DNA from: Dehalococcoidia bacterium
GTDB taxonomy: Bacteria; Chloroflexota; Dehalococcoidia; Lucifugimonadales; UBA3495
Assembly (NCBI GenBank): GCA_965232895.1
Contig: OZ247430.1
Coordinates: forward strand, 3,456,122 to 3,520,121
Direction of reading: 5' to 3'
DNA: 64,000 bases
In this document: piece by piece, positions 26,229 to 44,357 of the stretch
Numbering within the stretch: position 1 is the stretch's first letter
Layout of the letters: each line of letters opens with the position of its first letter
The notes under the pieces: model-generated
Told to the model about the DNA's origin: nothing
Seen by the model: the letters and a program-made list of their open reading frames with translations, nothing else
Databases searched by the model: none
Made by a program: the position numbers and the translations under genes

Positions 26229-27681
26229 GTAGGGGCGAATGATTATTCGCCCCATAGGCATCAAGTTAAGGGAAGCTGCCGGTAAGATGGTGATTGCATT
26301 CCAATCAATCGCCACCGGAGCTTCCCATGAGCAGTGTGCCAGAAGTTGCCCAGGCCATGAGCCGGGTTCTCACCGGAGTGGCCCAGCAGGCCGCCGCCGA
26401 GACGGGGCTGGTGCAACGGCGTTCCAAACTCACCGGTCCCGGCTTGGTGCAGACCCTGGTTTTCGGTTGGCTGGCCGACCCGGACGCCAGCCTCAGTTCG
26501 CTGACCCAGATGGCGGCCACGCTGGGGGTGACCATCAGTCCCCAGGGCCTGTTCCAGCGGTTCACGCCCCAAGGGGCGGAATGTCTGTACCGAGTTTTGC
26601 AAGAGGCTTTGGGTCAAGTTATTGACGCCGAACCGGTGGCGATTCCGCTACTGCGGCGCTTCACCGCCGTGTTGATCCAGGACAGCTCGGTCATCATGCT
26701 GCCCGACGGACTGAGCGAGGTCTGGGCCGGTTGCGGCGGCAGCGGTTCCTATGGACAGTCAGCCCTGAAACTACAGGTCCGGCTGGATTTGACCACTGTT
26801 TCTGATGCTGGGGCCTTTTCTGACTGATGGGCGAACCCCGGACAGCAATTCTGCGGTGCAGACGGCGCCGGTCCCAGCTGGCGCGCTGCGCATTGCCGAC
26901 TTGGGGTATTACCGACTGGATACCTTCCGGGAATTGGCGGCGCAAGGGGGCTATTTCCTGTCTCGGTACAAAGCCGGAACCAAACTCTACCGGCATGATG
27001 GCGCGGAACTGGACCTGCGGAAGCTGCTGTCCACTCCGTCGGCAACCGGCATTGACCGGCCGGTATTGCTGGGGCGCGCCCACCGCTTGCCTGTCCGCCT
27101 GCTGGCCGTCAAAGCGCCCCCAGAAGTGAGCGCCCAGCGGCGGCGGCAACTCAAAGACCACGCCCGCAAGAAAGGTCAGCAGCCCAGCAAAACCCGGTTG
27201 GCCTTATGCGACTGGACCATCTACGTTACCAACGCGCTCCCATCCCAGATCAGCCGAGATGAGGCAATGGTATTGGCGCGGGCGCGCTGGCAGATTGAAC
27301 TGCTTTTCAAACTGTGGAAGCAACACGGAGGCATTGACCGCTGGCGCTCCGCCAATCCCTGGCGGATCCTCTGTGAGGTCTATGCCAAACTGACCGCCAT
27401 GGTCATCCTGCACTGGACTTTGCTGACTGCGGTCTGGATGTACCCGGACCGAAGCCTGGTCAAGGCCGCCGCCGCCGTCCGTCGCTACGCCGTAATGCTG
27501 GCTACTGCCATGACCGGACTACTTACGGCAACCATGGTCATCGAGCAGATTGGCTTATGCCTGCGCGCCGGGTGTAAAATCCAGCGGCGTCGTCAACGCC
27601 CCGGGTCATATCAACTACTACTCGCCCTAACCGACGACGCTTAACTTGATGCCTATGGGGCGAATGATTATTCGCCCCTAC
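26229..27681 (+). mobile_element. IS4-family insertion sequence, copy A (frameshifted)
   Basis: 17-bp perfect IR ataggcatcaagttaag, bracketed by ggggcgaatgattattcgcccc on both sides. Nearly identical to copies B and C. Confidence 0.9.
26327..27644 (+). pseudogene. IS4-family DDE transposase, disrupted by a +1 frameshift
   Basis: tttc at 26799..26802 replaces gac (52600..52602 in copy B). This splits the ORF into 26294..26827 and 26805..27644. Confidence 0.85.
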
Positions 27682-27707: not shown

Positions 27708-28157
27708 TTATTTGGCTTCGTAGTCGGTTTCGTTGAGCAAAAACTCTTCAACCTCCGGAGTCAGGGGCAGTCTTACAACGCCGGTCGCCTCATCACGTAC
27801 TCCGAAACGCTGGCGCGCCTCCGCCAGGCGACTGCTTTGAAGACGCAACCCCTCGCGCAATCCTTCACGTAACCCTTCACCCCTCGCCTTGGCCAACGCC
27901 CGCTCCCGTGCCACTCTTCTGATTTCCTGCTTCGTCTCGAACATTCTTCGCACCTCGTCAAACAGGCCGGCCAGCGGTATCACAAACGCCCAGTACAGCT
28001 TCGTTACCGCGGTTGCAAAGTACCGGTACAGCCAAACCTCTGAATCGCCAAATACCTCCAAGATCACCACGCTGGCGACGCCGGCCAGCGTAAATCCGAC
28101 AATTTGCCACCAGATACCACGGTTGGGCAGTTCCCCGGATAGTCCCGATGCTCTCAT
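27708..28157 (-). CDS. Hypothetical membrane/coiled-coil protein
   Basis: Two hydrophobic segments followed by a charged helix with a GLREGLREGLR repeat. No family recognised. Confidence 0.35.
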   Translation of the reverse strand: MRASGLSGELPNRGIWWQIVGFTLAGVASVVILEVFGDSEVWLYRYFATAVTKLYWAFVIPLAGLFDEVRRMFETKQEIRRVARERALAKARGEGLREGLREGLRLQSSRLAEARQRFGVRDEATGVVRLPLTPEVEEFLLNETDYEAK

Positions 28158-28175: not shown

Positions 28176-28718
28176 CTACCGATCAACCAGACAGGCAATC
28201 ACCTGCGCCGCCGCCGTGGCCGCTCGCTCGGACAACTCGGCATCGGTCAGGGTTACGATGGGGTGCTCGATGATCGCCAGCCCGTACTCGGGGTCGCCGC
28301 GCATGCGGGACATGGCGTGGGCCTGGCTCACGAAGGGTCGGGTAGTCAATACGGTGGAAGGGATGCCCAGCAACTCGGTTTCCATTGCATCGTGCACACT
28401 GCACGCGGTGCAGGACCCTCATTCCGCCGTGGCATGTATTGCCACGTCAATGCTCTTTGCGGTGCGCTGCAGGTCCTCGATGCGGGCCGGCCACTGCCAG
28501 CCGCCCTTGTTGTGCTCCACGGCGCCGGCGATGTCGTAGCGTTCGCCGAGGATGGCGGCGATGCGGCGGAGCAGGTCCTCGGAGTGGGGCTTGTTGTTGG
28601 CGAACAAGCCGATCACCTTGCCGTCCAGGGTCGCCGGGCGCTGCGCCAACCGCGACGGAGCCGGCGGGGAGTCGTCACGCGGATCCAGCGTGACGATGGG
28701 AGTGGATTGTGTTGTCAT
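28176..28718 (-). CDS. UGSC-motif selenoprotein (in-frame UGA at 28419..28421)
   Basis: ORFs 28419..28718 and 28176..28397 share a frame. Read-through gives ...AIHATAE-U-GSCTACSVHDAMETE... The paralog at 42626..43165 has the same arrangement. AGGAG RBS. Confidence 0.72.
28391..28405 (-). promoter_or_regulatory. Candidate SECIS-like hairpin (CGUGCA-GUG-UGCACG)
   Basis: A 6-bp stem starts 14 nt after the UGA. It matches the hairpin at 42844..42858 in position and shape, with compensatory changes. Confidence 0.4.
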
Positions 28719-28774
28719 GGGATCATCTCCTGGTTCGGTTCCAGCCCGCAGGATAAAGCGGGATCACGATGGCG

Positions 28775-29776
28775 TCAGTGGGGTACGGCCACCTCGCGGA
28801 TAACCGAGCGGCTGGAGCCCCAGGTGCTGATCAGGCTGATGAAGGCCCCGGCCATGCCGCCCCCGGGCAGGACGGTGATCCGGTCGGCTTCCGGAACCAC
28901 CGGCACCAGCCGATCGTGATCCAGTTCGTGCCCCATTCGTTTCCAGCGCATCCACTCCGATACCGGCAGCCGCGCCTTGTCGTGCAGGAAACCGGCCACT
29001 TGCTGCCGCGACCAGCCGGCCGCCGCCACGTGCTGCATGGCCTCGGGGCTGATGACACAGATCACTTCGGGCATGCCCGGGCCAAAGGCCAGCATGGCGT
29101 GGGCCACGGTGGTCAGGAAGTCCGCCGGATCCCGGTCGCCATGCAGGGTTACCTGCAGGGGCGCCAGGGTGGCGAAGGCTCTCACGATAGTGGCGTCGTC
29201 GCCGTAGCCCAATTCCGATGCCAGGGACGCCCACGGGCTGATGGCCAGGTTCTCCGGGAAGCTGAAGGTGATCTTGCCGGCGTGTCCGAAGGTGCTGTTG
29301 TCCATCACCACCGGAACCGAGCCGTAGAAGTTGGACTTGAACAGGTTCACCGCCCGCCCGATGGCGGCGTTGGCGCGGCTTCCGTTGCCCATCATCTCCA
29401 CGCCGGCGTTCATTCCGATGGCCTCGGCGTAGGGACCGCTGACCACCGTGAGCACGGTGGCGCCGTTGGTGGACGTGCTGCTGGCGTGCAGGTTGAAGCT
29501 GCGGTCCGTTATCGCCGATAGCGACGCCATGACCACCGGGAAGTGTTCCGGCAGGCAGCCGGCCATCACCGCGTTGACGGCGGCCTTGCCGGCTGTGAAC
29601 CGCTTCTGCCGGATAATCTCCGTTCCCAGGTCGTGGTCGGCGTCCACGCCGGCGTAGTCCAGCATGGCCTGTACCCGGTCGGGCGTGGGCGGGACGATGG
29701 GCAGGCCGTCAGTGAGACCGTTGGAGAAGTAGTACTCCTGGGCGTCGTTCCAGTCGGCGAATCTGATGGTGGTCAT
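28775..29776 (-). CDS. Conserved protein of unknown function, partner A of the UGSC selenoprotein
   Basis: 333 aa with NGLTDGLPIVPPT, AAVNAVMAGCLPEHFPVV and RANAAIGRAVNL. Clear paralog of 40751..41824. Confidence 0.7.
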   Translation of the reverse strand: MTTIRFADWNDAQEYYFSNGLTDGLPIVPPTPDRVQAMLDYAGVDADHDLGTEIIRQKRFTAGKAAVNAVMAGCLPEHFPVVMASLSAITDRSFNLHASSTSTNGATVLTVVSGPYAEAIGMNAGVEMMGNGSRANAAIGRAVNLFKSNFYGSVPVVMDNSTFGHAGKITFSFPENLAISPWASLASELGYGDDATIVRAFATLAPLQVTLHGDRDPADFLTTVAHAMLAFGPGMPEVICVISPEAMQHVAAAGWSRQQVAGFLHDKARLPVSEWMRWKRMGHELDHDRLVPVVPEADRITVLPGGGMAGAFISLISTWGSSRSVIREVAVPH

Positions 29777-29861: not shown

Positions 29862-31259
29862 TCAGTTGCGCAGGCCGCCCCGCCGAAAGTCTGGGGCCTC
29901 CATGGGCATTTCGGTCACCACCAGCGGGTCTTGCAGCCGTGAGGCGATGCGCGGGCGCGCGGATGCGATAGCCTCGATCTGTTGCGATGTGGTGATGATG
30001 GTGGGCAGTCGCTCCTCGTAGCGGTAGCCTACGATCTGGAACAACTTGTCCTCGGCGAAGGGCGTGCTGCGCTCCGCTCCCATGTCGTCCAGCACCAGCA
30101 CGTCGGCGTTGCGGATCCGGTCCAACAGGTCGTCGTGGTTGACTGCGCTGTCCGGGGCGAAGGTGGCCCGAAGATAATCGAGGAGGTCGGCCACCGTCGC
30201 AAAGAAGACCTCGTCGCCCCGGTCTTCGCGCTCGGCCGCGGCGGCCACCGCCAGGTGGGTCTTGCCCACGCCGTACGGTCCGTGCAGGCTCAGCCAACCA
30301 TCGGGACTGTTCGCCCACCGCTGCACGTAGGACTTGGCGGCGCGGAGGCTGCGTTGCTGATCGTCGGTCAGCCGGCCGTTGCCGGCCGGATCGAAAGCGG
30401 CGAAGGTCATCCGCGCCCTCATGTTGGGCGGGATTGCGCCTATGGATCGGCCAGTGGAACCGCCCACCCTGCCCAGCCGGTAGAGCCGCCCGAACCCGTC
30501 CGGTGATTCCAGCCGGGTGCGCAGGAAGTCGTCCAGCCGGTTGGGGTCGCCGCGCAGGGTAACCACCGTGGGCAGGCGGGCAGCGTGCCGGGAAGCCAGC
30601 AATTGGAACAGCCGCTCCTGGGTCCACGGAGTAGACGGACGAGTGGGCAGGTCGTCCAGGACCAACAATGGCGCGTGGCGAACCTGATCGAACAGGTCAA
30701 CGAATGGCTGATCGGCTTCGTCATCGAAACCGCTGCGCAGGTAGTCGATGAGGTCCGCCGCGGTGATGAACAAGGCCGGGCTGCCCAGCTCGATCCGGCG
30801 GTTGGCGATGGCGGCGGCCAGGTAGGTCTTGCCGCTCCCGCTGGGGCCGACGAGGGTGAGCCATCCCTCGGGGCTTTCGGCGTAGGCGACGGCGGCGGTC
30901 AGGGCATTGCGGAAAGCCTGCCGTGCTGCTGGCTCCTGGCTCAGGCCGTCCGGATTGGCATTCTCGAACGTGGCCTGGCGCAGGGACCCGAGATTGCTGT
31001 ACCGCTCCAGGGCTTCGATGCGCTGGCTTCGGTCGGTGTCCTGTTCCTGGCACCGGCACGGGAACACCTTGCCGAAATCGGGATTGGTTACGTGGACCTG
31101 CCGCGTGACCCAACCCGCCCCGCCGCACCGCTCGCAATCCTCAGCCCCGTTCCGGCTCTCCGGGCTCCCAGGGTAGTCGACCGTATCGGCGTCGATAGCT
31201 GTCCAGGTATCCCGAGCGGCTATCCGGCGCAATATCGCTCCCAGGCTCTCCATGCTCAT
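29862..31259 (-). CDS. DnaC/DnaI-like helicase loader with two tandem AAA+ modules and an N-terminal Cys cluster
   Basis: Walker A/B occur twice (GPSGSGKT...LLVLDD; GPYGVGKT...VLVLDD). CERCGGAGW...FPCRCQ at the N-terminus. Follows dnaB and the dnaD-like gene. Confidence 0.8.
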   Translation of the reverse strand: MSMESLGAILRRIAARDTWTAIDADTVDYPGSPESRNGAEDCERCGGAGWVTRQVHVTNPDFGKVFPCRCQEQDTDRSQRIEALERYSNLGSLRQATFENANPDGLSQEPAARQAFRNALTAAVAYAESPEGWLTLVGPSGSGKTYLAAAIANRRIELGSPALFITAADLIDYLRSGFDDEADQPFVDLFDQVRHAPLLVLDDLPTRPSTPWTQERLFQLLASRHAARLPTVVTLRGDPNRLDDFLRTRLESPDGFGRLYRLGRVGGSTGRSIGAIPPNMRARMTFAAFDPAGNGRLTDDQQRSLRAAKSYVQRWANSPDGWLSLHGPYGVGKTHLAVAAAAEREDRGDEVFFATVADLLDYLRATFAPDSAVNHDDLLDRIRNADVLVLDDMGAERSTPFAEDKLFQIVGYRYEERLPTIITTSQQIEAIASARPRIASRLQDPLVVTEMPMEAPDFRRGGLRN

Positions 31260-31971: not shown

Positions 31972-33357
31972 CTAGGCGACGGACTCCTCGTAGCGCGCCA
32001 GCTCGTCGAACCGCATCAGGTTGTCCCGGAAGTAGAGGTGGAAGCTCCCGGTGGGTCCGTGCCGGTGCTTGGCTACGATCAACTCCACGAGGTTGCGCGG
32101 ATAGGGCCTTCCCGGCGCGTGCTGCTCCCACTCTTCTTCGGTGAAGTTGCGGTCCTCGCGGTACAGGAAGGTCACCACGTCGGCGTCCTGCTCGATGCTG
32201 CCGCTGTCCCGCAGGTCGGAAAGCTGCGGGCGATGTCCGGGCCGGTTTTCCACCACGCGGCTGAGCTGCGAGCAGGTGAAAACCGGCACGTTCAGGTCCC
32301 GGGCCATGCCCTTCAGAGACCGGGAGATCTCGCTGATTTCCTGCACCCGATTTTCGCCATAGCCCTGCCGCCGGCCGCCGCCCTGGATCAGCTGGAGGTA
32401 GTCGACCACCAGGAAGTCCAGCCCATGCTCCAGCTGCAGCCGTTGGGCCTTGCTCCTCATGTCCATGGTGGTCTGGAAGGGGGTGTCGTCGATGAAGATA
32501 GGGAGCCCGGAGAGCAGACCCACGGCGTCGGATATCACGTTCTGCTCGTTTTCTGACAACAGGCCGAGGCGCAGCCGGTGCGAGTCCACTCCCGACTCGG
32601 CGACGAGCATCCGCATCGCGATCTGCTCGCGGCTCATCTCCAGGCTGAAGATGCCACAGGTCTGGCCGGACTTGGCCGCGTTGGTGCAGATGTTCAGGGC
32701 CAGGCTGCTCTTGCCGAGGCCGGGCCGTGCGCCGACGATCAGCAGGTCGGAACGCTGCATCCCGCCCAGCAGGTTGTCGAAGTCGCTATAGCCGCTCTGC
32801 AGGGGTGGCTCGTCGGTCAGGGACACGTCGCCGATGTCGCCCTGCAGGTAGACGTCGAGCACCGAGCTCAGCGGGATGAAGCCCCGGTCGTCGCCGGCCG
32901 GGCGGACACCGAAGAGCACCTCCACCGACTGGCGCATCGTTTCGTCGACGTCCGAGCTCTCGTCGAACCCCAGCTCGGCAATGCGGTTCCCGGCTGCGAT
33001 GATGCGTCGCTTGGCCGCCGTCTCGGCGACGATGGCGGCGTAGTGCTCCACGTTGACCGACGTGGGTGTGCCGGCGATGAGTTGTCCCAGGTAGGGCAGC
33101 CCACCCACCTGCTCTAACCGCCCCTGGGTTTGCAGCTCCCGGGCGACGGTGATCTGGTCGATGGCCTCCTGGCGAGAGAAAACCGCCAGGCAGGCGGCGA
33201 AGCAGAACTGGTGCCGGGCCCGGTGAAAGTCCTCGGGCTTGATCACCGGGGTGACCCGATGCAGGGCGTCGCCGTCAATGAGCAGCGCGCCCAGCACCGC
33301 GGCCTCGGCCTCAAGGTCGTGGGGCAATTGCCGTTCACTGTACGGGTCGGCAACCAC
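31972..33357 (-). CDS. dnaB: Replicative DNA helicase
   Basis: LPHDLEAEAAVLGALL...GARPGLGKSSLALN...VDYLQLI...LSQLSR. Confidence 0.97.
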   Translation of the reverse strand: MVADPYSERQLPHDLEAEAAVLGALLIDGDALHRVTPVIKPEDFHRARHQFCFAACLAVFSRQEAIDQITVARELQTQGRLEQVGGLPYLGQLIAGTPTSVNVEHYAAIVAETAAKRRIIAAGNRIAELGFDESSDVDETMRQSVEVLFGVRPAGDDRGFIPLSSVLDVYLQGDIGDVSLTDEPPLQSGYSDFDNLLGGMQRSDLLIVGARPGLGKSSLALNICTNAAKSGQTCGIFSLEMSREQIAMRMLVAESGVDSHRLRLGLLSENEQNVISDAVGLLSGLPIFIDDTPFQTTMDMRSKAQRLQLEHGLDFLVVDYLQLIQGGGRRQGYGENRVQEISEISRSLKGMARDLNVPVFTCSQLSRVVENRPGHRPQLSDLRDSGSIEQDADVVTFLYREDRNFTEEEWEQHAPGRPYPRNLVELIVAKHRHGPTGSFHLYFRDNLMRFDELARYEESVA

Positions 33358-34836: not shown

Positions 34837-34911
34837 TGGTCGGGGTGGGCAGATTCGAACTGCCGATCTCCTGCTCCCAAAGCAGGCGCCTTGCCGCTAG
34901 GCCACACCCCG
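34837..34911 (-). tRNA. tRNA-Pro (UGG)
   Basis: Cloverleaf folded by hand. Acceptor cggggtg/caccccg, anticodon loop tttggga, GTTCGAATC T-loop, CCA encoded. Confidence 0.9.
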
Positions 34912-34948
34912 ACGTCTCCCTCCCGACGGCCCGGGCGATCTGGCAAAG

Positions 34949-35020
34949 TACCCCCGCGGAGACTCGAACTCCGGTCTCTGGCTCCGGAGGCCAGCACTCT
35001 ATCCACTGAGCTACGGGGGC
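34949..35020 (-). tRNA. tRNA-Arg (CCG)
   Basis: gcccccgtagctcagtggatagag..., anticodon loop ctccgga, GTTCGAGTC T-loop, no encoded CCA. Confidence 0.88.
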
Positions 35021-35132
35021 ACTTTCGATTTTAGCACAACCGGCGGCGCGACAATTCGCGTTGCCGGATCAGTGATCATGCCGGCCATATGCGAACCCGC
35101 CCAGGCTCCGGCTGACCAGGCTGGCTTGCCGG

Positions 35133-35164
35133 CCAACAAAAGACGGCTCACGCAGGTGAGCCGT
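35133..35164 (-). terminator. Rho-independent terminator downstream of tRNA-Asp
   Basis: A 9-bp stem (acggctcac/gtgagccgt) with loop gcag. On the minus strand it is followed by CUUUUGUU. Confidence 0.55.
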
Positions 35165-35178
35165 TTCGGAGTTTGCGA

Positions 35179-35254
35179 TGGCGACCCGGATCGGATTCGA
35201 ACCGACGATCTCTGCCTTGACAGGGCAGTATGTTAACCACTACACCACCGGGCC
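35179..35254 (-). tRNA. tRNA-Asp (GUC)
   Basis: ggcccggtggtgtagtggttaacat..., anticodon loop ctgtcaa, discriminator G, CCA encoded. Confidence 0.9.
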
Positions 35255-35972: not shown

Positions 35973-38900
35973 TTACGCGGCCTTTGCCGGGTACTCGGTA
36001 CAGCTTTCGTCCTGGAGCAGCAGGTCCTGCACGCGCTGTTGCAGCTCGGCGCACACCGCGGTTGACACCGTGGGGATCTCCATCAGCACCGTGCGTCCTT
36101 CTTTGAGGTTGAGCTCCAGGTAGACCTTGTCATCGCCGGTGTATTCGAGCATGACCCGGATGGCCTGCCGCAGGCGGTACCGGTCCTCGTCCGGCTGGTC
36201 GGTTTCGACCATCCGCACCAGGACTCCGGACTCCCGGTGTCCGTTGGAGGGTGCGGCGGGAGATGGTGCAGGCGCGGGCTTGCTGCCGTTGGACCGCGGA
36301 CTTTTGGCGCCATTGCCGGGGTTCGGGGCCGTCGGCTTGCTCGCGGACTCCGGCGCGGTCTGGCCCGCCGGAGCCTGCGGAGCATTTTCCGGCAGCTCGT
36401 ACTCCTGGGCCTCGTAGCAGGCGATGGAGAAGTCGTCACCGCGTATCTGAAGGCGGCCCGTTACGCGCGCCACGCGGCCCTGTTGCCAGACGTGCGCCGT
36501 CTTTTCCAGCGAGTCGGGCCAGACCATCGCCTCCACCTGTCCGCCCACCATGGCCAGGTCCACCCGCAGGAACTTGCGATTGTCCCGGGTGTAGCGTTCG
36601 GTGACGGCGGCGATGTGCCCCAGGAGGGTCACCGTGCTGCTGAGCATCTCTTCGTCCAACTGGTCCACCGAGTTGTAGGCGTCGCCCGGGGTGATGGCGG
36701 CCAGGGCCAGCAGTGGGTTGTACGACAGCGCGACCCCGAGGTACTCCTTTTCCAGGTTGGCTTTTTCCTGGGGAGTGTAGTCGTCGTGGGACGTGTCCAA
36801 CTCCAGCAGCGTGCCGCCGGCGCCGCTGTCCATCTCCTCGCCGAACATGCCGAACTGTCCGGAGTTGCGGTTCCGCGTTTCCTGTTGCGCCAGCGCCCAG
36901 ATGCGGTCCAGGTTGCCGATCACCGTTGCCCGGGGCTCCAGCGAATCGAAGGCCCCGGCCTTGGCCAGACCTTCCAGGGTTCGCCGGTTCAGGCCGGAAA
37001 CGTCCACCCGGCGGCAGAAATCGGTGATCGACGCGTAGGGTCCCTTGGCAACGCGCTCGGTAACGATCGGAGTGATGGCCGCCTCGCCCACGGTCTTGAT
37101 GGCAGCCAGCCCGATGCGCAGCTTGCCGCTTTGAGTGCGGTCGCCCGGCGTGTCGATGGTGTAGTGGATGCCGGAACTGTTCACGTCGGGCAACTCGATC
37201 CCGATGCCCATGCGCGTGCATTCGTTGATCGAGGCAACGTAGCGGTCGCCGTGGTCCAGCCGGCAGTTGAGCACCGAGGCCATGTACTCCAGCGGGTAAT
37301 GGGTCTTGAAGTAAGCGGTCCAGTAGGAGATCAGCCCGTAGCTGACGCTGTGGGCCTTGTTGAAGGCGTATCCGGCGAAAGGCTCGATCAGGTTGAAGAT
37401 CTCCGCGCCCATCTGCTGGCTGTAGCCCTGCTGCACCGCGCCGGACACGAACCGTTCGCGCTCCTCGGCCATCAGTTCCGGGATCTTCTTTCCCATGGCC
37501 TTGCGGACGGTGTCCGCCTCGCCCAGGGAATAGCCGGCGAAGTTCTGCAAGACGTGCAGAACCTGGTCCTGGTAAACGATCACGCCGTAGGTCTCGTCCA
37601 GCAACTCCTGCATGCTGGGGTGCGGATACGTGACCTGCTCCTTGCCGTGCTTGGAGCGAATGAACCGGTCGATGTGCTCCATCGGGCCCGGGCGGTAGAG
37701 GGCGATCATTGCCGCGATGTCGCCCAGATCAGATGGCTTGAGTTCCTTGATGTACCGCTGCATGCCGGCGCTTTCCAGTTGGAACAGGTCGGTGGTGTTG
37801 CCGGTGCCCAGCAGTTCGTAGGTGGCTTCGTCGTCCAGCGTCAGCCGGCTCAGGTCGATGCGGATGCCGCGTTCCTCGTCCAGCAGCTTGATGGTGCGAT
37901 CCAGGATGGTGAGGTTGGTCAGGCCCAGGAAGTCCATCTTGAGGAGGCCCAGCTTGGCCACCGGGTCCATGGAATACTGGGTCATCATCACCGGGCTGTT
38001 CTCGTCCCCCCGTGCCGGACGCTGCAGCGGGACCGTTTCCGTCAGGGGCTCGTCAGCAATCAGCACGCCCGCGGCGTGGGTGCTGACGTGGTGGACGATG
38101 CCTTCCAGCGCCTGGGCGTTGTCCACCAGATCCCGGATCGCCGCGTCGCGCGCGTAGGTGTCCGACATTTCGGGGTTGGCGGTCATGGCGTCCGCGATGG
38201 TTCGGGACTTGAAGGGAACCATCCGGGCGATGCGGTCGACGTCGCCGTAACTCATGCCCAACCCGCGACCGACGTCGCGCAGGGCCGCCTTGGGCCCCAT
38301 GGTTCCAAAGGTAATGATCTGGGCAACCCGATCGCTGCCGTACCGGTCGATGACGTAACGGAGCACCTCATCGCGACGGTCGTCCTGGAAGTCCATGTCG
38401 ATGTCGGGCATTTCCTTACGCTCGAAGTTCAGGAAACGCTCGAACACCAGGTTGTACCGCATCGGGTCGATATCGGTGATGCCCAGGCAGTACAGCACCA
38501 CGCTGGCTGCGGCGCTCCCCCGCACGCCGAACAGGATTTGCTGCTTGCGGACGAACGAGATGATGTCCCACACCACCAGGAAGTAGTTGGCGAAACTGGT
38601 CTGCCGCACGACCTCCAGCTCATACTCCATGCGGGCGCGGGCAGCGTCGTTGTTGATCCCGTACCGCTGGTTGAAACCCTCCCAGCAGATGCGCCCCAGG
38701 TAGGCGTCCGCGTCCTCGTTGTTGGGCGTGGGATACCGGGGAAGGTGCATCTGCCCGAACCCCAGCGACACGTTGCACTGCTGCGCCACCTCGCCGGTGA
38801 TGTCCACAGCCTGCGGGAAGTCGTGGAACAGCGCGGCCATCTCGTCGGCGGACCTGATGTAGTACGACGAATCCTCCATCCGCAGGCGTTTGTCATCCAT

Positions 38901-39581
38901 CACGTTGGTGCCGGTCTGGATGCAGATATACACGTCCTGGTACTGGTAGTCGGACTGGCGGACGTAATGGGCGTCGTTGGTTACCAGGAGGGGTACGCCG
39001 GTTTCCCGGTTCAGGCGAACCAGGCCATCATTGATCCGGGGCAACTGCTCAATATGCTCGTGCCGCTGCAATTCCAGGAAGTAGTTTTCGCCGAACAGCT
39101 CGCGATACCAGCCGACCATCTGCTTGGCGTCCTGGTAGTTGCCGTCGGCCAGCAGGGTCGGCACCTCGGCGGAGGGGCACCCGGACAGGCAGATCAACCC
39201 GCTGCGGTGCCGATCGATCAACTCCTTGTCGATGCGGGGCCGGTAATGGAAACCTTCCAGGTGGGAGAGGGTCACCAGCTGCAGCAGGTTGCGGTACCCG
39301 GTGTTGTCCCTGGCGATGAGCACCAGGTGGTTGGCGGTGCGCTCGTTGGGAGTGCGGTCATGCCGGCTGCCGTGGGCAACGTAGAACTCGCAGCCGATGA
39401 TCGGCTTGATCCCGGCTTCCTTGCATTCGGAGTAGAAATCGACCACGCCATACAGCGAACCGTGGTCGGTGATGCTCATGGCGTCCATGTCCAGCTCGCG
39501 CGTCCGGTTCACCAGATCCGGGATGCGACTGATGCCATCGAGCATGCTGTATTCGGTGTGTGTATGCAGGTGAGTGAACAC
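35973..39581 (-). CDS. dnaE: DNA polymerase III alpha subunit
   Basis: MFTHLHTHTEYSMLDG (PHP domain)...FLGLTNLT...; 1202 aa. Confidence 0.97.
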   Translation of the reverse strand: MFTHLHTHTEYSMLDGISRIPDLVNRTRELDMDAMSITDHGSLYGVVDFYSECKEAGIKPIIGCEFYVAHGSRHDRTPNERTANHLVLIARDNTGYRNLLQLVTLSHLEGFHYRPRIDKELIDRHRSGLICLSGCPSAEVPTLLADGNYQDAKQMVGWYRELFGENYFLELQRHEHIEQLPRINDGLVRLNRETGVPLLVTNDAHYVRQSDYQYQDVYICIQTGTNVMDDKRLRMEDSSYYIRSADEMAALFHDFPQAVDITGEVAQQCNVSLGFGQMHLPRYPTPNNEDADAYLGRICWEGFNQRYGINNDAARARMEYELEVVRQTSFANYFLVVWDIISFVRKQQILFGVRGSAAASVVLYCLGITDIDPMRYNLVFERFLNFERKEMPDIDMDFQDDRRDEVLRYVIDRYGSDRVAQIITFGTMGPKAALRDVGRGLGMSYGDVDRIARMVPFKSRTIADAMTANPEMSDTYARDAAIRDLVDNAQALEGIVHHVSTHAAGVLIADEPLTETVPLQRPARGDENSPVMMTQYSMDPVAKLGLLKMDFLGLTNLTILDRTIKLLDEERGIRIDLSRLTLDDEATYELLGTGNTTDLFQLESAGMQRYIKELKPSDLGDIAAMIALYRPGPMEHIDRFIRSKHGKEQVTYPHPSMQELLDETYGVIVYQDQVLHVLQNFAGYSLGEADTVRKAMGKKIPELMAEERERFVSGAVQQGYSQQMGAEIFNLIEPFAGYAFNKAHSVSYGLISYWTAYFKTHYPLEYMASVLNCRLDHGDRYVASINECTRMGIGIELPDVNSSGIHYTIDTPGDRTQSGKLRIGLAAIKTVGEAAITPIVTERVAKGPYASITDFCRRVDVSGLNRRTLEGLAKAGAFDSLEPRATVIGNLDRIWALAQQETRNRNSGQFGMFGEEMDSGAGGTLLELDTSHDDYTPQEKANLEKEYLGVALSYNPLLALAAITPGDAYNSVDQLDEEMLSSTVTLLGHIAAVTERYTRDNRKFLRVDLAMVGGQVEAMVWPDSLEKTAHVWQQGRVARVTGRLQIRGDDFSIACYEAQEYELPENAPQAPAGQTAPESASKPTAPNPGNGAKSPRSNGSKPAPAPSPAAPSNGHRESGVLVRMVETDQPDEDRYRLRQAIRVMLEYTGDDKVYLELNLKEGRTVLMEIPTVSTAVCAELQQRVQDLLLQDESCTEYPAKAA

Positions 39582-39943: not shown

Positions 39944-40384
39944 CTACCCCGGAATTTGCCTGGCGAGGTCGGCAACGCGGGCTACGGTGGAGAGAGGTGG
40001 AATGACGCCGGGCGGGGTTGGCGTGTTGGCAACCCGGAGCAGCTCCGCTACCGGGATGCGGAGCTGCCGGTGCAGGGTCTCCGCCATCGCCAGCGTCATC
40101 TCCTGTTCGCCGGCCAGTAATTCTTCAATATCGCCCTGGTCGCCCAGCAGTTGATTGATAGCCTGTACCGTCCAGCCCTTTTCCTCAACCCAGAACCGAA
40201 TGAGTGCCCGGCCTTCGGGGACGGGCATCGGAATGTTGCGATACTCGTAGAGCAGAACCAGGTCAACCAGGAGGTCGAGCTCTTCATCCTCCGGAGTGTC
40301 AGGTTCGGCATCCATCAGAATTTCAATGCGAGCCAATGCCGCTTCGTATTCCTCTTCGGTCCGGACTGGCTTGATATTACACAT
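39944..40384 (-). CDS. higA: HigA-family antitoxin (HTH)
   Basis: TEEEYEAALARIEILMDAEPDTPEDEELDLL followed by an HTH-like C-domain. Lies 3 nt downstream of higB. Confidence 0.75.
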   Translation of the reverse strand: MCNIKPVRTEEEYEAALARIEILMDAEPDTPEDEELDLLVDLVLLYEYRNIPMPVPEGRALIRFWVEEKGWTVQAINQLLGDQGDIEELLAGEQEMTLAMAETLHRQLRIPVAELLRVANTPTPPGVIPPLSTVARVADLARQIPG

Positions 40385-40387
40385 TCC

Positions 40388-40681
40388 CTAAACCTCCGCG
40401 GCGTTGATACGGTCGTACTCGGTGTGGCTGCCGATAAAGCGGATGTAAACTGCTCGCCGCCTGTAATTGATATTGACTACTAATCGATAGTCGTTGCCTT
40501 TGATGTTGAACACTACCCGGTTGCCAGCAATGATACTCGCGTTGGCGAATTGAGCCCTCACTGCTGCCGGTGTATCCCAGTTTGCATCGTCAGCATCCTG
40601 ATACCAACTGCGCAAGGGCCGTTCTGCATCAGCATGGCGCTCCCAAAATTCGCGCAATGTCCTCTTGGAGAAGACCCTCAT
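40388..40681 (-). CDS. higB: HigB-family toxin (mRNA interferase)
   Basis: MRVFSKRTLREFWERH...VVFNIKGNDYRLVVNINYRRRAVYIRFIGSHTEYDRI is the HigB_toxin pattern. Confidence 0.85.
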   Translation of the reverse strand: MRVFSKRTLREFWERHADAERPLRSWYQDADDANWDTPAAVRAQFANASIIAGNRVVFNIKGNDYRLVVNINYRRRAVYIRFIGSHTEYDRINAAEV

Positions 40682-40750: not shown

Positions 40751-41824
40751 TCAGCCCGGGATCTCTATCTTCTCCGTCACCACGCGGGTCACTCCCCAAC
40801 CGGCGAGCCAGGCGGAGTGACGGCCGTCGCCCCCGGCTACCACCACTACGATGTCGTCGACCTGCGGCGCTATCGGCACCATGGTATTCGGGTCGTCATC
40901 ATTAACCCAATCCGGGTAGTTGCGGTTGCCCCAGTGTCCCAGGCCCGACAGGTCGGCGATGGACATGCGCGCGTTGGCGAACACGTACTCGCGAACGTCC
41001 TGCTTGGTGAACCCGTCCGCCGCGATTTCCGCCGCGTGCTCCGGGCTCAGCACCAGCGTCACCTGCGCCCCGGTTCCGATCTGGTAGTAATTCGAAAAGC
41101 CGGTGGCCCGGGTCCCTTGCACCAGCGTGCGGAGCACTTCGGTTCCGGTGGATACCGTCGTCTCCATGATCGGGTAGAAGCCCCTGATGGCGTGGAGGGT
41201 CACCATGCTGTCTTCGGGATCGAGCCCCAGCTCCACGTGCCTCGGCTCCCACGGGCTGCGCGCCTCGTTCTCCGCGAAGCAGAAAGAGTACCTGCCAGGC
41301 ATGGCCAGGGTGGCCTTGTCCATGTCGCCGATGATGAGACCGGCTACGTTGCGCACGAACAGGCGCAGCGCCCGGCCGATGGTAGCGTTGGCCCGGTAGC
41401 CCGGCCCGAACGCCCCGGAATCGCCGTTGATGCCCAGGCGCTCGGCAATCGGGCCGTTCACGATCACCACCGGCGCGGCGCCGCCCGTGGTGGCCTGGCA
41501 CCCGGCCAGGTTGAACGACGTTTGCAGGGCCGCCTTCACGCACGCCACCACCACCGGAAAATACTCGGGCCGGCACCCGGCCATCACCGCGTTGATCGCG
41601 ACCTTCTCGATGGTGACCACCGAGTTGGACGGCTGCGCGATCCCCAAGGACAGGGCCGGGTCCTCGCCCCAAGGCCCTAGCATGCGCTGGACCGCATCTT
41701 CCGTGGCCGGAACGACGGGCATACCGTCAGTCCATCCCTGCTCTTCGTAGTAGTCCTGGATCGCGTCGTAGGAGTCAGGCACGTCGATGCGTCGCGAGTT
41801 CAAGGCTCGACTGTTGCTTGTCAT
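40751..41824 (-). CDS. Conserved protein of unknown function, partner B (paralog of 28775..29776)
   Basis: QGWTDGMPVVPAT, VAINAVMAGCRPEYFPVV and RANATIGRALRL align with partner A. ATG 41824 was chosen inside ORF 40751..41929. Confidence 0.7.
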   Translation of the reverse strand: MTSNSRALNSRRIDVPDSYDAIQDYYEEQGWTDGMPVVPATEDAVQRMLGPWGEDPALSLGIAQPSNSVVTIEKVAINAVMAGCRPEYFPVVVACVKAALQTSFNLAGCQATTGGAAPVVIVNGPIAERLGINGDSGAFGPGYRANATIGRALRLFVRNVAGLIIGDMDKATLAMPGRYSFCFAENEARSPWEPRHVELGLDPEDSMVTLHAIRGFYPIMETTVSTGTEVLRTLVQGTRATGFSNYYQIGTGAQVTLVLSPEHAAEIAADGFTKQDVREYVFANARMSIADLSGLGHWGNRNYPDWVNDDDPNTMVPIAPQVDDIVVVVAGGDGRHSAWLAGWGVTRVVTEKIEIPG

Positions 41825-42590
41825 AACGTTCACTCTTCTGAAGTGGATTTTGTGGTTCGTCGCGTGTGTACAGGTCCGCAACGACGCCGAAATGGTCGGA
41901 TAGCCGCCGGTCCCCGTCCGTGTTGTCAATCGTCGTCAGTGAGCCGGCGGACAGATCGCCGCTGATGGCGATGTGATCGATTGCGCGCCGCCCCCGCAAT
42001 CCAAGCCCGGCAGTGGCTATGGTCAAGCCCGGCGTTGGTCCGGCAAGCATGGTCTCTTGCAATTCGGCGCGCACCGGATTGAGTAGTGGCGGAAATGGGC
42101 GTCGTCGTTGTCCGATCTGTTGGTTGAAGTCGCCCGTCAGGACGACCGGGTATGACGCTTTGCGGTTTAGAATCGAAGCCAAGCCTTTGAGATACGTGGA
42201 ATGTTCTTCCCACGGTCGTTTGTCCCTGGATCCCACGTTCACGTTGGCGTTGTGCCAGGGGATGCAGACCCCGATTACCATCACGTCGCCAATCGAGGTT
42301 CGGGTGATCCCGGACACGAACCGTCCGGGCGGCATTGCGGAGTCGCCAGACCAGTCTATGTTTCGCCAGGGGTGACGCGACCAGAGCAGGACCTTGCGCC
42401 GCCCTTGAATCACGGGACCCCCGGAGTAGGGTTGCGGCCAGATCGAGTAGCCGCATCCCGCGAGCAGATTCTTGCTTGTCTCCGTGAGGCAGATCACCTC
42501 GGGATCATGGCTCGCAATGCGGCGCAAAACTTCTGGGCTACGCGCCGCAGCGGGCGTAGCCCATTGAACATTCCAGTTGACCACTTTCAT
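41775..42590 (-). CDS. Endonuclease/exonuclease/phosphatase (EEP) family protein
   Basis: MKVVNWNVQW...VICLTE...VLTGDFN...DHIAISGD...SDHFGV. Confidence 0.8.
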   Translation of the reverse strand: MKVVNWNVQWATPAAARSPEVLRRIASHDPEVICLTETSKNLLAGCGYSIWPQPYSGGPVIQGRRKVLLWSRHPWRNIDWSGDSAMPPGRFVSGITRTSIGDVMVIGVCIPWHNANVNVGSRDKRPWEEHSTYLKGLASILNRKASYPVVLTGDFNQQIGQRRRPFPPLLNPVRAELQETMLAGPTPGLTIATAGLGLRGRRAIDHIAISGDLSAGSLTTIDNTDGDRRLSDHFGVVADLYTRDEPQNPLQKSERYDKQQSSLELATHRRA

Positions 42591-42625: not shown

Positions 42626-43165
42626 TTACTTCCCGTTGGTCAGCATCTCGGCGATCCGGCCGGCGTAGTCGTGCGCCAGTTGCTGCACGTCCGGTATTGA
42701 CCGCGAAGCCAGCGGGCTGGGCAGAGCCAGGATCTGAACGCCAGGCATTCCCAGCGAGGAGGCGCGGGCGTACGCGGCCCGGGTGAAACTCTCGGTGATT
42801 ACGCTCACAGACGGGACGCCGCGGGTTTCGGTAACTACTGTGTCGTGGAGACCCCACGCCGTGCAGCTCCCTCAATCCGCGATTCCGTGCACCACCGCAT
42901 CGCACTGCTCGATCAGTTCTTCGATGGTCTCGTCGGAGCAGGGAGCGCTGAAGCTGAACTTGCGCAGGTACACCACCTTCTCGACGGCATACTCCTCCTC
43001 CAGGATGACCTGAAGCTCCTGCAGGAAGTTGTCGGAATGGTACTTGCGGTTTTCCAGCAGGCCGATGGTCTTGCCGGAGAGGCTGGGCAACCGGTCGGTC
43101 GCCGCGCGCTCCTCGGTTTTTTGCTCCGGACGCGGGTCCAGTATCTGGATGGTTGCAGTCGTCAT
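42626..43165 (-). CDS. UGSC-motif selenoprotein, paralog B (in-frame UGA at 42872..42874)
   Basis: ORFs 42872..43195 and 42626..42808 share a frame. Read-through gives ...AVVHGIAD-U-GSCTAWGLHDTVV... ATG 43165 follows a GGAGG RBS. Confidence 0.72.
42844..42858 (-). promoter_or_regulatory. Candidate SECIS-like hairpin (CGUGGG-GUC-UCCACG)
   Basis: Starts 14 nt after the UGA, the same offset as in locus A. Stem positions 5 and 6 covary relative to locus A. Confidence 0.4.
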
Positions 43166-43192: not shown

Positions 43193-43217
43193 CATTCTCG
43201 TGAAAGCGGGAATCCAG
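43193..43217. repeat. Degenerate REP-like hairpin (cattctcgtgaaagcgggaatccag)
   Basis: Same family as 11311..11330 and the MITE hairpins. Lies in the spacer between the GuaB3-like gene and the UGSC-B gene. Confidence 0.45.
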
Positions 43218-43220
43218 AGT

Positions 43221-44357
43221 TTATCCCAGCATCTGATAGTGCTTGCCCTCGGTTTTGATGGCCGGGGCGATGACCATTTCGGTCTTGTGGAAATCGCGGA
43301 CGGTGTACGCGCCGCACATGCCCATGGCCACCCGCAAGGCGCCGACGAGGTTCTGGGTTCCGTTGGTGACGCTGGACGGCCCGTGCATCAACTGCTTCAG
43401 GGAGCCCTTGGTGCCGACGTTGATGCGCGTGCCCCGGGGCAGTTCGGGGTGTGCGTTCGCCATGCCCCAGTTGTAGCCGCGGCCCGGAGCCTCCGCCGCC
43501 TGCGCAAAGGGTGTGCCCAGCATCACTCCGTCAGCTCCGCTGGCTATCGCCTTGCAAACGTCGCCGCCGGTCCGCAGTCCGCCGTCAGTGATCACGCTGA
43601 CGTACCGCCCGGTGCGCTGGAAGTAGTCCTCCCGGGCCGCCGCGCATTCCAGGGTTGCGGTCACCTGCGGTACGCCGACCCCGGTCACCTCGCGGGTGGT
43701 GCAGGCCGCGCCCGGGCCGACCCCGACCAGCACGGCATCGATCCCAGTTTCCATCAACTCGCTGGCTACGCTGTAGCTGACGCAGTTCCCGACCACCACC
43801 GGAACATCGAGCGATTCGATCAACTCGGCAAAGATGAGACCCCGGTAACTGCGGGACATGTGCCGAGCGGTGGTTACGGTGGATTGCACCACGATGATAT
43901 CGGCGCCGGCCTCGACGGCCATCGGGCTCAGCCGCTTGGTGGTCTGGGGCGTGAACGCGATGGCGGCGATGGATCCAGTCTGCTTGATTTCCTGGACACG
44001 CTCGCCGATGAGGTGATCCTGGACCGGCTGGCTGTAAACTTCTTGCAGGTACTCCGTGACCTCGGCCTGGTCCATGGAGATGATTTCCTCCAGGACCGAA
44101 TACGGATCTTCGTAGCGCGTGTACAGGCCCTCGCCGTTGAGCACCCCCAGACCGCCCATTTCGTGCATCAGGGTGGCGAATCGGGGAGACACGGATCCGT
44201 CCATGGCTGAGGCCATCACCGGAGCGTCGAAAGAGTATTGGCCGATGCTCATTTTCGTGGACGTCATTTCCGGGTTGATTGTGACATCGCCCGGGACGAT
44301 CGCGACTTCATCAAAGCCATAGGATCGTTCCAGTTCTTTGAGCAAACGCCTGACCAT
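43221..44357 (-). CDS. GuaB3-type IMP dehydrogenase-related protein
   Basis: [12 protein letters not shown]...MASAMDG...[20 protein letters not shown]; 378 aa, no CBS insert. Confidence 0.85.

Follow-up and report, generated by a model that had tools for sequence, protein, structure and literature searches.

The window, by which is meant the whole stretch of 64,000 nucleotides analysed here from a Dehalococcoidia bacterium, carries two loci at which a gene for a selenoprotein of the UGSC family is found together with a gene for a larger protein of an uncharacterised family, hereafter referred to as the partner (Table 1). This pairing of a UGSC gene with a 333- or 357-amino-acid paralogue, as claimed in a preliminary description of the DNA, was confirmed by the open reading frames, the alignments, the Pfam search and an HMM scan, and the scan of all six frames detected exactly two partner genes and two UGSC genes within the window. 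All the shared motifs quoted earlier for the larger proteins were recovered, and it is in these that conservation within the family is highest.

Table 1. Positions of the genes and hairpins of loci A and B within the window
Feature	Position	Strand	Size or family	Basis
Partner A	28775..29776	(-)	333 aa, uncharacterised family	ORF and translation
UGSC-A selenoprotein gene	28176..28718	(-)	180 codons	Read-through translation
SECIS-like hairpin, UGSC-A	28381..28415	(-)		Fold of window sequence
UGSC-B selenoprotein gene	42626..43165	(-)	179 codons	
SECIS-like hairpin, UGSC-B	42834..42867	(-)		Fold and comparison with homologues
Endonuclease/exonuclease/phosphatase-family gene	41775..42590	(-)	271 aa, Pfam PF03372 (Exo_endo_phos)	E 8.3e-14
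Partner B	40751..41824	(-)	357 aa, paralogue of partner A	

At locus A, the stop codon of partner A and the start codon of UGSC-A are separated by 56 nt. Partner A carries Cys74 within the sequence NAVMAGC and a Ser at position 172, where the family has its second conserved Cys, and its closest homologue, with 95% identity, is labelled 'hypothetical protein, Chloroflexi bacterium'. The in-frame TGA of UGSC-A is located at 28421-28419 in the context HATAE-U-GSCTA, and the HMM matches on both sides of it. UGSC-A matched Pfam PF24696 (UGSC) with E 1.5e-42 (146.1 bits against a gathering score of 25 bits, profile positions 1-171), and gave a full-length match to NCBIfam NF041046 with E 1e-31 and 109.9 bits, against a cut-off of 125. 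At locus B, the TGA of UGSC-B is at 42874-42872 in the context GIAD-U-GSCTA, and the matches were E 7.3e-50 for PF24696 (169.9 bits, profile positions 1-171) and 127.5 bits for NF041046, above the 125-bit cut-off. For translation of UGSC-B, the start at 43165 is better than the upstream ATG at 43195, because it is preceded at 5 nt by GGAGG, and because a weak promoter-like site (43204-43176), which overlaps 43195, lies upstream of it. Apart from this site, the promoter and terminator scans gave nothing beyond chance. Both genes of the locus B pair are present as described earlier, and the stretch left unlisted between them proved to be the Exo_endo_phos gene, the end of which overlaps the start of partner B. 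A contig with a 94%-identical partner (L201) has this gene as well, and in relatives at 74% identity (L202, L203) the syntenic IMPDH-UGSC-partner-DnaE locus lacks it; the gene is a lineage-specific insertion at locus B, and probably stands outside the UGSC/partner module. Partner B retains both conserved cysteines at positions equivalent to 74 and 172, and no identical protein on record was found by exact look-up.

Full-length alignment of partners A and B gave 35% identity (E 3e-57), and UGSC-A and UGSC-B are 30% identical (E 4e-28), while orthologues of each copy were found elsewhere at 74-95% identity. As judged from the sequences, the two loci are ancient diverged paralogues, and recent duplication is excluded. 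The term 'duplicated module' of the preliminary description thus holds for the presence of two paralogous pairs and not for any recent event, the low identities pointing to ancient paralogy. Replication and housekeeping genes surround both loci, and this neighbourhood offers no hint on the function of the module.

UGA codon and downstream hairpin of the UGSC genes

Comparison of homologous sequences showed that the UGA of UGSC is a Sec codon. The homology runs on past TGA in 200 independent loci, and the HMM matched both sides of TGA in all 120 metagenome loci. Among the UGSC homologues adjoining partners, the codon aligned with U is TGA in 78 of 81 and the Cys codon TGC in the other 3, the archaeon Natrialba being among the sources of these three. 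The only tRNAs detected within the window were tRNA-Pro, -Arg, -Asp and -Lys. The 120 listed matches to UGSC-B are all fragments of 97 to 124 amino acids, nearly all of 99, and these cover only the N-terminal half that precedes TGA. In gene calling, UGSC is broken off at the UGA, which leaves fragments of about 100 amino acids; the same mis-calling also yields chimeric 'partner' ORFs that start within UGSC.

A hairpin follows the UGA in both genes. For UGSC-A, its core stem is formed by pairing of nucleotides +17 to +22 with +26 to +31 counted from the U of UGA (28405..28391), with an apical loop of G23, U24 and G25 and a lower stem spanning +7 to +41; for UGSC-B, the core stem is located at 42858..42844, and the apical loop GGUCU includes G23 and U24. 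Among 148 unique homologues, this 6-bp stem (17-22/26-31) is paired in 92-100%, and the loop is G23-U24-N in 147. Pair 21-27 is CG in 120 and GC in 26 of these homologues. It is C-G in UGSC-A and G-C in UGSC-B, a double change by which pairing is kept and the encoded residues are altered on both sides. For the metagenome subset, part of the 3' arm of the hairpin was fixed by the search pattern used to collect the loci. With the 74 unique sequences derived from genomes, which had been collected without this pattern, the RNAalifold consensus gave the same stem, and G23 and U24 were unpaired in 69 of the 74; the pair-by-pair counts refer to the pooled set, in which the genome-derived sequences were not counted apart. 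No SECIS family of Rfam was matched at the gathering score, and the folding energy of the hairpin was not better than that of shuffled sequence (z +0.6 to +0.7). The case for a SECIS element rests, therefore, on conservation and covariation.

Sequence and predicted fold of the two proteins

UGSC-A and UGSC-B share with the UGSC family (PF24696, NF041046) the U-G-S-C motif, the length and the Sec codon. The U/C-G-S-C motif follows strand 3, as E-U-GSCTA in UGSC-A and D-U-GSCTA in UGSC-B, and an alignment of 29 family members shows no variation in its C/U, G, S and C columns. The Pfam search up to E 10 gave, besides UGSC itself, only an unrelated ATR1 WY-domain (0.013), and no match to PDB was obtained by sequence. 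The fold was modelled with AF2, for which the Cys-type UGSC domain of a naturally occurring fusion protein served as input. The model has a pLDDT of 89.8 and shows a beta-alpha repeat of five strands, and its best PDB matches were flavodiiron protein, azoreductase and flavodoxin, with TM of about 0.45, so that UGSC is predicted to have a generic flavodoxin-like alpha/beta fold. The thioredoxin fold suggested previously (PMC2398784) was rejected, as the AF2 model shows the flavodoxin-like repeat instead. UGSC was also rejected as a relative of GrdA, GrdB or PrdB, because no sequence match was detected and no such structure was among the top 50 Foldseek matches.

The partner gave no match to Pfam or NCBIfam up to E 10 and none to PDB with either the single sequence or the profile, and the earlier statement that the large protein belongs to no assignable family was upheld; its RefSeq label is 'hypothetical protein'. 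The family is large, amounting to about 7,000 clusters when grouped at 50% identity, and is distributed among marine SAR202-like Chloroflexi, soil Rokubacteria, Proteobacteria, Actinobacteria and haloarchaea. Among 481 members, Cys74 is conserved in 467, Cys172, in the context F-C-F, in 447, Arg141 in 479 and Glu175 in 480, and other near-invariant polar residues are Asp23, Thr31, Thr103, Arg134, Asn136 and Asp159. Cys74 is replaced by Ala or Gly in nine members, at least three of which still adjoin a Sec-containing UGSC and eight of which keep Cys172. Since Cys74 is missing from these nine and Cys172 from partner A, neither Cys is strictly required. The proposal that the Cys of NAVMAGC works with the Sec is plausible, and no experimental data bear on it.

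The AF2 model of partner A has a pLDDT of 87.4. With this model, Foldseek gave only weak resemblances: the best match was class I fumarate hydratase (7xky_A, E 4e-4, probability 0.95, TM 0.30), followed by IRG1 and MmgE at E 0.03-0.3, and superposition on structures of the fumarate hydratase and PrpD types gave TM of 0.24-0.34 with rmsd above 15 A. The resemblance being weak, the partner was not placed with class I fumarate hydratase or with PrpD; as regards a class I Fe-S fumarate hydratase in particular, the TM values are only 0.30-0.34, and two Cys columns are conserved in place of the three ligands of a [4Fe-4S] cluster, neither of them invariant.

Linkage, fusion and redox context

Linkage of the UGSC and partner families is near-obligate, and fusion is frequent: in hundreds of other genomes the two genes nearly always adjoin each other or form one. 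The linkage was shown by comparison of gene neighbourhoods in both directions. Starting from the partner, 74 of 80 loci in species genomes proved to have the UGSC gene, for the most part some 60 nt downstream. Starting from UGSC, with metagenome loci that had been found by a UGSC-only DNA pattern, the partner was detected in 97 of 120, and in 37 of the 38 flanked on each side by 1.1 kb or more, L094 being the sole two-flank locus without it. The gap in the metagenome loci is 62 nt (median), with both genes on the same strand. Among 130 full-length partners, 8 lacked UGSC within 3 kb. The finding of UGSC unlinked to the partner in other genomes, which would have refuted the coupling put forward at the outset, was thus not made. 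Retention of the linkage through rearrangement, another early suggestion, was also borne out: 67 same-strand loci are partner-first and 29 are UGSC-first, at least six switches of gene order were inferred on a neighbour-joining tree, which is rough, and fusions occur in both orders. Functional coupling of UGSC and partner is, on this comparative evidence, near certain. No conserved third gene family was found, the next commonest neighbour being present in at most 21 of 80 loci, and the neighbourhoods of the pair are heterogeneous and name no substrate.

Fusion to UGSC was observed for 45, or about a third, of the best 150 partner representatives at 50% identity. The fused UGSC is complete in 12; only the post-UGA half is attached, on the N-terminal side, in 29, and only the pre-UGA half, on the C-terminal side, in 4. 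In-frame genomic fusions are also known. In further members, other modules are fused to the partner: P0298 is a partner with a low-molecular-weight thioredoxin-reductase-like domain carrying a CAVC motif; P0308 and P0329 are partners fused to FeThRed_B, the catalytic subunit of ferredoxin:thioredoxin reductase; and in P0330, an AhpC/TSA redoxin with CxxC is fused to the partner in place of UGSC. All these alternative fusion partners were shown to be disulfide-reducing modules. A trxB-like gene adjoins the pair in at least 11 loci, and an annotated operon on a Roseovarius plasmid reads LysR, hypothetical protein (the partner), UGSC family (seleno)protein and trxB; the TrxB-like protein of the Roseovarius plasmid pTHAF8_b is FIU85_RS20935. 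In P0262, P0263 and P0318, the fused UGSC domain lacks both redox residues (IGGS, IGAA and SGVY, respectively), and there has a non-redox role, perhaps a structural one. Since other redox modules or a redox-dead UGSC may accompany it, the partner is the constant element and the redox module the interchangeable one.

A putative two-component reductase

From these observations we consider it fairly probable that the two genes of each locus make up a self-contained two-component oxidoreductase dependent on selenium, in which electrons are transferred from UGSC to the partner; the chemistry is inferred, with neither a structure of the complex nor an experiment behind it. UGSC would be the dedicated redox subunit, with the Sec, decoded from UGA via the SECIS hairpin inside the coding sequence, placed in U-G-S-C at the end of strand 3 and the start of a helix. 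Its Sec-x-x-Cys pair would cycle between selenol/thiol and selenenylsulfide. The partner would be the substrate-handling subunit, with a pocket in which Asp, Thr, Arg, Asn and Glu are near-invariant, together with one or two conserved Cys. Electrons may flow from NAD(P)H or ferredoxin through proteins like thioredoxin reductase or ferredoxin:thioredoxin reductase to UGSC, and then to the partner active site, where the Cys74/Cys172 site would reduce an unidentified small molecule, probably anionic. Physical contact between UGSC and partner, the reductive direction of electron flow, the part of Cys74 and Cys172 in catalysis, and the small anionic nature of the substrate are all inferences.

A more specific reading, held only tentatively and at slightly less than even confidence, is that the partner is the catalytic subunit of a class of Sec/Cys-dependent reductases that is very widespread and has gone unrecognised, that has a fold absent from PDB, and that acts on abundant but unidentified organic acids. 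UGSC would then be its selenium-bearing module for electron transfer and bond cleavage, analogous to selenoprotein A of glycine reductase, independently evolved, and used by aerobes. Glycine reductase and D-proline reductase (GrdA/GrdB, PrdA/PrdB) consist of a small Sec/Cys redox protein or subunit and a substrate-specific protein encoded adjacently. The Sec is responsible for the reductive bond chemistry, after which it is left as a selenenylsulfide, and the small protein is re-reduced by thioredoxin reductase and thioredoxin. The UGSC/partner pair resembles these systems in the adjacent coding of a small Sec/Cys redox protein and a putative substrate-specific protein. It differs in that no relation in sequence or fold was detected, nothing points to a pyruvoyl proprotein, only two genes are involved, and most of the organisms carrying the pair are aerobic heterotrophs (Dehalococcoidia/SAR202-like, Rokubacteria, Burkholderiales and Rhodobacterales). 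Haloarchaea carry Cys forms of UGSC, and Natrinema zhouii and Candidimonas nitroreducens (L072) have natural pairs of the Cys type. Likeness was also noted to methionine sulfoxide reductases, peroxiredoxin/AhpF and arsenate reductase, in which a catalyst with one or two Cys is served by an interchangeable dithiol or selenol-thiol donor, and in which natural fusions to thioredoxin-like domains and Sec/Cys alternation occur; the partner, however, is homologous to none of these single-cysteine reductases. As to the substrate, class I fumarate hydratase and enzymes of the MmgE/PrpD/IRG1 fold act on C4-C6 di- and tricarboxylates. Carboxylates would fit the conserved arginines of the partner, and also the carboxylate transporters and CoA-transferases sometimes found near it, whereas class I fumarate hydratase has three cluster-ligand Cys against the two conserved Cys of the partner and shares no sequence similarity with it.

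The roles of the two subunits could be reversed, UGSC being the actual catalyst, for example one similar to a peroxidase or disulfide reductase selenoenzyme, and the partner a non-catalytic scaffold, specificity factor, chaperone or regulator. The Sec of selenoenzymes is normally catalytic, neither Cys of the partner is strictly invariant, and the linkage and fusion data are silent on which subunit catalyses. This arrangement is nevertheless judged unlikely, because the many near-invariant polar residues of the partner, such as Arg141 and Glu175, are typical of an active site, and because the partner also occurs with an AhpC/TSA redoxin, FeThRed_B or thioredoxin-reductase-like domain replacing UGSC and with UGSC domains devoid of the redox pair. 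Less credible again is a relay for sulfur or selenium trafficking, made of a persulfide or perselenide carrier and a transferase, rather than a substrate reductase. A Cys facing a Sec/Cys pair on another protein does resemble a persulfide relay, and part of the partner gave weak Foldseek matches to PurM-like selenophosphate synthetase; these matches (E about 0.1-0.3) are, however, at chance level, the genes for cysteine desulfurase, SelD, YedE/YedF and rhodanese are not recurrent in the neighbourhoods, and the fused modules donate electrons to disulfides and are not sulfur carriers. Coincidental adjacency, or an in-frame TGA due to a pseudogene or sequencing error, with no functional module at all, might be read from the splitting of UGSC into fragments of about 100 amino acids by gene callers (all 120 listed UGSC-B homologues) and from the unexceptional folding energy of the hairpin, but is ruled out by the comparative data, namely the homology across TGA, its alignment with Cys codons, the covariation and near-constant GU loop of the hairpin, and the linkage that holds both ways.

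Since the mid-2000s, UGSC has been ranked, in the available portions of the literature, among the most abundant prokaryotic selenoprotein families of ocean metagenomes (PMC2398784, PMC9312934, PMC13188914), and reviews up to 2026 give no function for it (PMC9312934, PMC13188914). The literature consulted treats it as standing alone, and ascribes to it a 'likely Trx-like fold'. In the 2008 paper of Zhang & Gladyshev, a fusion of UGSC to a conserved 'Unknown_1' domain with a conserved Cys is recorded (PMC2398784). 'Unknown_1' may be the partner family. In contrast to the stand-alone, Trx-like protein of the literature, the UGSC described here has a near-obligate large partner and a flavodoxin-like predicted fold. 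The near-obligate pairing, the fusions, the swappable redox module and the thioredoxin-reductase-like operon genes altogether turn UGSC from an orphan of 20 years into a defined candidate for a two-component enzyme with a testable partner. Cultured and tractable hosts include Roseovarius sp. THAF8, Paracoccus versutus, Variovorax and Natrinema, and the natural Cys forms of UGSC are expressible in E. coli.

Conserved linkage of the UGSC and partner genes

The preliminary description had inferred functional coupling between the small selenoprotein UGSC and the large protein encoded beside it, here called the partner. Linkage was followed in both directions. Eighty loci were retrieved from GTDB species genomes by the partner alone, and a UGSC gene was found in 74 of them, nearly always starting 20-200 nt past the partner stop on the same strand. 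For the reverse test, metagenome contigs were scanned with a DNA pattern of the UGSC motif only (G/A-D-TGA-G-S-C-N15-H-D). All of the loci thus obtained (120/120) carried true UGSC genes, and the partner was present on the contig in 97/120. Where each flank measured at least 1.1 kb (38 loci), it was present in 37. This near-obligate linkage strongly supports functional coupling, which we regard as very nearly certain. The linkage was also kept through rearrangement, as had been proposed: both gene orders are common (partner-then-UGSC, 67 loci; UGSC-then-partner, 29; median gap, 62 nt), and a neighbour-joining tree of 130 partner domains gave a rough estimate of at least six order switches.

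No third conserved gene family was detected among the 80 loci, each neighbour type being found in at most 21. The commonest neighbours were ABC transporter parts, SDRs, TctC/TRAP binding proteins, HpcH aldolases, amidohydrolases, CoA-transferases and LysR regulators. Among the metagenome UGSC genes flanked by 1.1 kb or more on each side, one alone lacked a partner (locus L094, 2580-3083, minus strand); it lies near genes whose products resemble, by reading of translations only, NUDIX-type hydrolase, D-Ala-D-Ala dipeptidase-like and phosphotriesterase-like proteins.

Two old paralogous modules among housekeeping genes

The presence of the two-gene module at both loci was confirmed by the ORFs, by pairwise identities and by a six-frame HMM scan of the 64-kb window, which contained exactly two partner/UGSC pairs. 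UGSC-A begins 56 nt past partner A. Locus B is of the UGSC-first type, and the start of partner B overlaps the end of a middle gene by about 50 nt. Identity was 35% end to end between the partners (E 3e-57) and 30% between the UGSC proteins (E 4e-28), and orthologues of each copy occur in further Chloroflexi/Dehalococcoidia assemblies (A, 95% identity; B, 94%). The modules had been called duplicated; the paralogy of the two pairs stands, but the copies, each with its own close orthologues, are old paralogues and did not arise by a fresh duplication.

Features of loci A and B and their surroundings
Feature	Position	Strand	Remarks
DDE transposase gene	26805-27644	+	PF01609, 2.5e-18; about 500 nt from end of locus A
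149-aa ORF	27708-28157	-	Between transposase and locus A; no Pfam match
UGSC-A	28718->28176	-	180-codon frame; one in-frame TGA at 28421-28419, context HATAE-TGA-GSCTA
Partner A	29776->28775	-	333-aa ORF, locus A
465-aa protein	29862-31259	-	Two IstB/DnaC-like AAA+ modules; immediately upstream of partner A, beside DnaB
DnaB gene	31972-33357	-	Neighbour of the gene for the 465-aa protein
Pro/Arg/Asp tRNA cluster	34837-35254
DnaE	35973-39581		Flanks locus B
HigB-toxin gene and adjacent small gene	40388-40681 and 39944-40384	- (both)	HigB Pfam 5.5e-31
Partner B	41824->40751	-	357-aa ORF
Middle gene of locus B	42590->41775	-	Exo_endo_phos family, 271 aa; between UGSC-B and partner B
UGSC-B	43165->42626	-	179-codon frame; TGA at 42874-42872, context GIAD-TGA-GSCTA
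IMPDH-like gene	43221-44357		Flanks locus B
Clp-type double AAA+ ATPase	44547-47153		ClpB/ClpC-like; flanks locus B
5S rRNA gene	47240-47356	-	tRNA-Lys 140 nt away, other strand

The order IMPDH-like/UGSC/partner/DnaE is preserved without the middle gene in 74%-identical relatives (loci L202 and L203), and the contig of L201, with a partner protein 94% identical, carries the Exo_endo_phos gene as well as the one for the HigB toxin. As the Exo_endo_phos gene is present in L201 and missing from the syntenic L202 and L203, it is inferred from this comparison to be a recent insertion into the operon of locus B. HigB and its small neighbour lie directly downstream of partner B, and more distant syntenic loci lack HigB. 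The small gene, without a Pfam match, possibly encodes an antitoxin. Since the neighbours include DnaB, DnaE, a Clp-type ATPase and an IMPDH-like protein, both modules are placed among housekeeping genes, in contrast to the catabolic islands of many other genomes. No match to 23S or 16S rRNA was found anywhere in the window.

Selenocysteine decoding of the UGSC genes

Both UGSC-A and UGSC-B matched Pfam PF24696 (1.5e-42 and 7.3e-50, respectively) and NCBIfam NF041046, the latter above the equivalog cut-off for UGSC-B and below it for UGSC-A. Homology extends across the TGA. Of 81 homologues adjoining partners in species genomes, 78 have TGA as the aligned Sec codon and the other three, including that of the archaeon Natrialba, have TGC. 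A 6-bp stem located 3' of UGA (nt 17-22 and 26-31, numbered from the U of UGA) is common to 148 unique sequences, with pairing in 92-100%. Compensatory exchange was observed at pair 21-27 (CG 120, GC 26), pairs 19-29 and 18-30 vary too, and the apical loop is G23-U24-N in 147/148. UGSC-A and UGSC-B themselves differ by a compensatory double change that affects the amino-acid sequence as well (C-S-V versus W-G-L). In the SECIS of E. coli fdhF, SelB recognises an apical loop in which G and U lie at fixed distance from UGA. Part of the hairpin 3' arm was preset by the DNA search pattern in the metagenome subset. For the genome-derived subset, gathered without that pattern, only the common fold was checked, the pair-by-pair counts being those of the pooled set; its RNAalifold consensus reproduced this stem, G23 and U24 being unpaired in 69/74 unique sequences. 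The hairpins of the window copies were not more stable than shuffled sequence, and no Rfam model matched the UGSC hairpins.

Gene calls in public databases end at the UGA: among the matches listed, all 120 UGSC-B homologues (P0391-P0510) are fragments, roughly 100 aa in length (97 to 124, nearly all 99), that match the query in its N-terminal half alone. Locus L007 carries, about 800 nt downstream of its intact UGSC gene, a second, N-terminally truncated copy (12349-12642) that keeps the TGA and is 70% identical to UGSC-A. In the model of the UGSC domain (pLDDT 89.8), five strands form a beta-alpha repeat, and the redox motif lies where strand 3 ends and a helix starts; the PDB structures that match this model best are flavodoxin-like domains rather than thioredoxins.

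The partner family and its redox context

That the large protein belongs to no assignable family was borne out. Neither Pfam nor NCBIfam gave a match up to an E of 10, no PDB entry matched by sequence or profile, and homologues in cultured Roseovarius, Variovorax, Paracoccus, Natrinema and Halalkalicoccus are labelled 'hypothetical protein' in RefSeq. At 50% identity the family comprises 6,972 clusters (E 1e-3 or better) or 2,042 (E 1e-30 or better), distributed over Dehalococcoidia, Rokubacteria/Methylomirabilota, Burkholderiales, Alphaproteobacteria, Actinobacteria, Acidobacteria and haloarchaea. Among 481 members, Asp23-Gly-Leu-Pro, Thr31, Thr103, Arg134, Asn136, Gly140-Arg141 (Arg in 479), Asp159 and Trp182 are near-invariant, as are Glu175 (in 480), Cys74 of the NAVMAGC motif (in 467) and Cys172 (in 447). 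Cys172 is kept in 8/9 members without Cys74; partner A has Cys74 and Ser at 172. The AlphaFold2 model, a confident one (pLDDT 87.4, pTM 0.89), resembled only weakly its best PDB match, the class I fumarate hydratase alpha subunit (E 4e-4, TM 0.30); IRG1/MmgE-type proteins ranked next.

Fusion to UGSC was found in 45 of the 150 best family representatives: 12 have a complete N-terminal UGSC domain, mostly Cys-type CGSC and in a few cases with both redox residues lost, 29 start with the post-UGA half and four end with the pre-UGA half. The post-UGA-half fusions are Sec-type fusions truncated by gene calling, and ORFs spanning both genes across the TGA occur in genomic loci too. The Sec-type fusions are called as 'partner' proteins starting with the last 60-100 or so UGSC residues (P0249, P0251 and others). 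Other family members are fused to a low-molecular-weight thioredoxin-reductase-like flavoprotein with a CAVC motif (P0298), to the ferredoxin:thioredoxin reductase catalytic subunit (P0308 and P0329, the latter carrying UGSC as well) or to an AhpC/TSA-type redoxin with CxxC that replaces UGSC (P0330). A trxB-like gene adjoins the pair in at least 11 loci, and the annotated order on a Roseovarius plasmid is LysR/hypothetical (partner)/UGSC family (seleno)protein/trxB. All modules joined to the partner are electron deliverers to a disulfide.

Several partners depart from the common arrangement. Seven of the 150 representatives (P0242, P0245, P0248, P0254, P0269, P0270 and P0339; 616-741 aa, six of at least 709) are tandem double-partner proteins whose chains contain no UGSC domain. 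Two homologues without recognisable UGSC, one at locus L069 (9977-11035; no UGSC gene within 10-kb flanks) and the protein P0388 (no UGSC domain), end in short Cys-pair tails (GACIDCEPP, PECDC), which might stand in for a separate redox module. A divergent copy at locus L026 (4883-6763), with Gly at 74 and no Cys172, ends in GCSADEC; it is preceded by an ORF resembling a degenerate UGSC N-terminal half (GKRIGFVSN..., below the HMM threshold) and followed by an ArsC/Spx-like small ORF.

A redox relay is the mechanism we favour, with moderate confidence. UGSC would serve as a dedicated redox subunit, its Sec/Cys pair being reduced by donors of thioredoxin-reductase or ferredoxin:thioredoxin-reductase type, and would then reduce the Cys74/Cys172 site of the partner or a substrate bound there through the conserved Arg, Asn, Asp and Glu residues. 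The data show the gene structures, the signals for Sec decoding, the near-obligate linkage, the fusions and the redox character of every alternative module; contact between the two proteins, the direction in which electrons flow, the role of both cysteines and an anionic small-molecule substrate are inferred. A strict model in which Cys74 pairs with Sec is weakened because neither cysteine of the partner is an absolute requirement, redox-dead UGSC domains occur in some fusions and a few partners stand alone. As to the substrate, the weak resemblance of the predicted fold to C4-C6 dicarboxylate enzymes, and the occasional proximity of CoA-transferases, MaoC/enoyl-CoA hydratases, HpcH-type lyases and carboxylate transporters, are leads only.

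UGSC is an already recognised family without an assigned function (PMC2398784, PMC1976440, PMC9312934, PMC13188914). A UGSC protein fused to a conserved 'Unknown_1' domain, itself bearing a conserved Cys, was noted in 2008 (PMC2398784); this domain may be the partner family, the identity being unconfirmed. No description of the partner family or the operon was found in a paper library searched for UGSC selenoproteins and for family names and accessions. The logic is similar to that of glycine and proline reductases and of Trx-recycled single-cysteine reductases, but UGSC/partner fails every membership test for those families. UGSC and its partner represent an undescribed, very widespread candidate for a two-component selenoenzyme.
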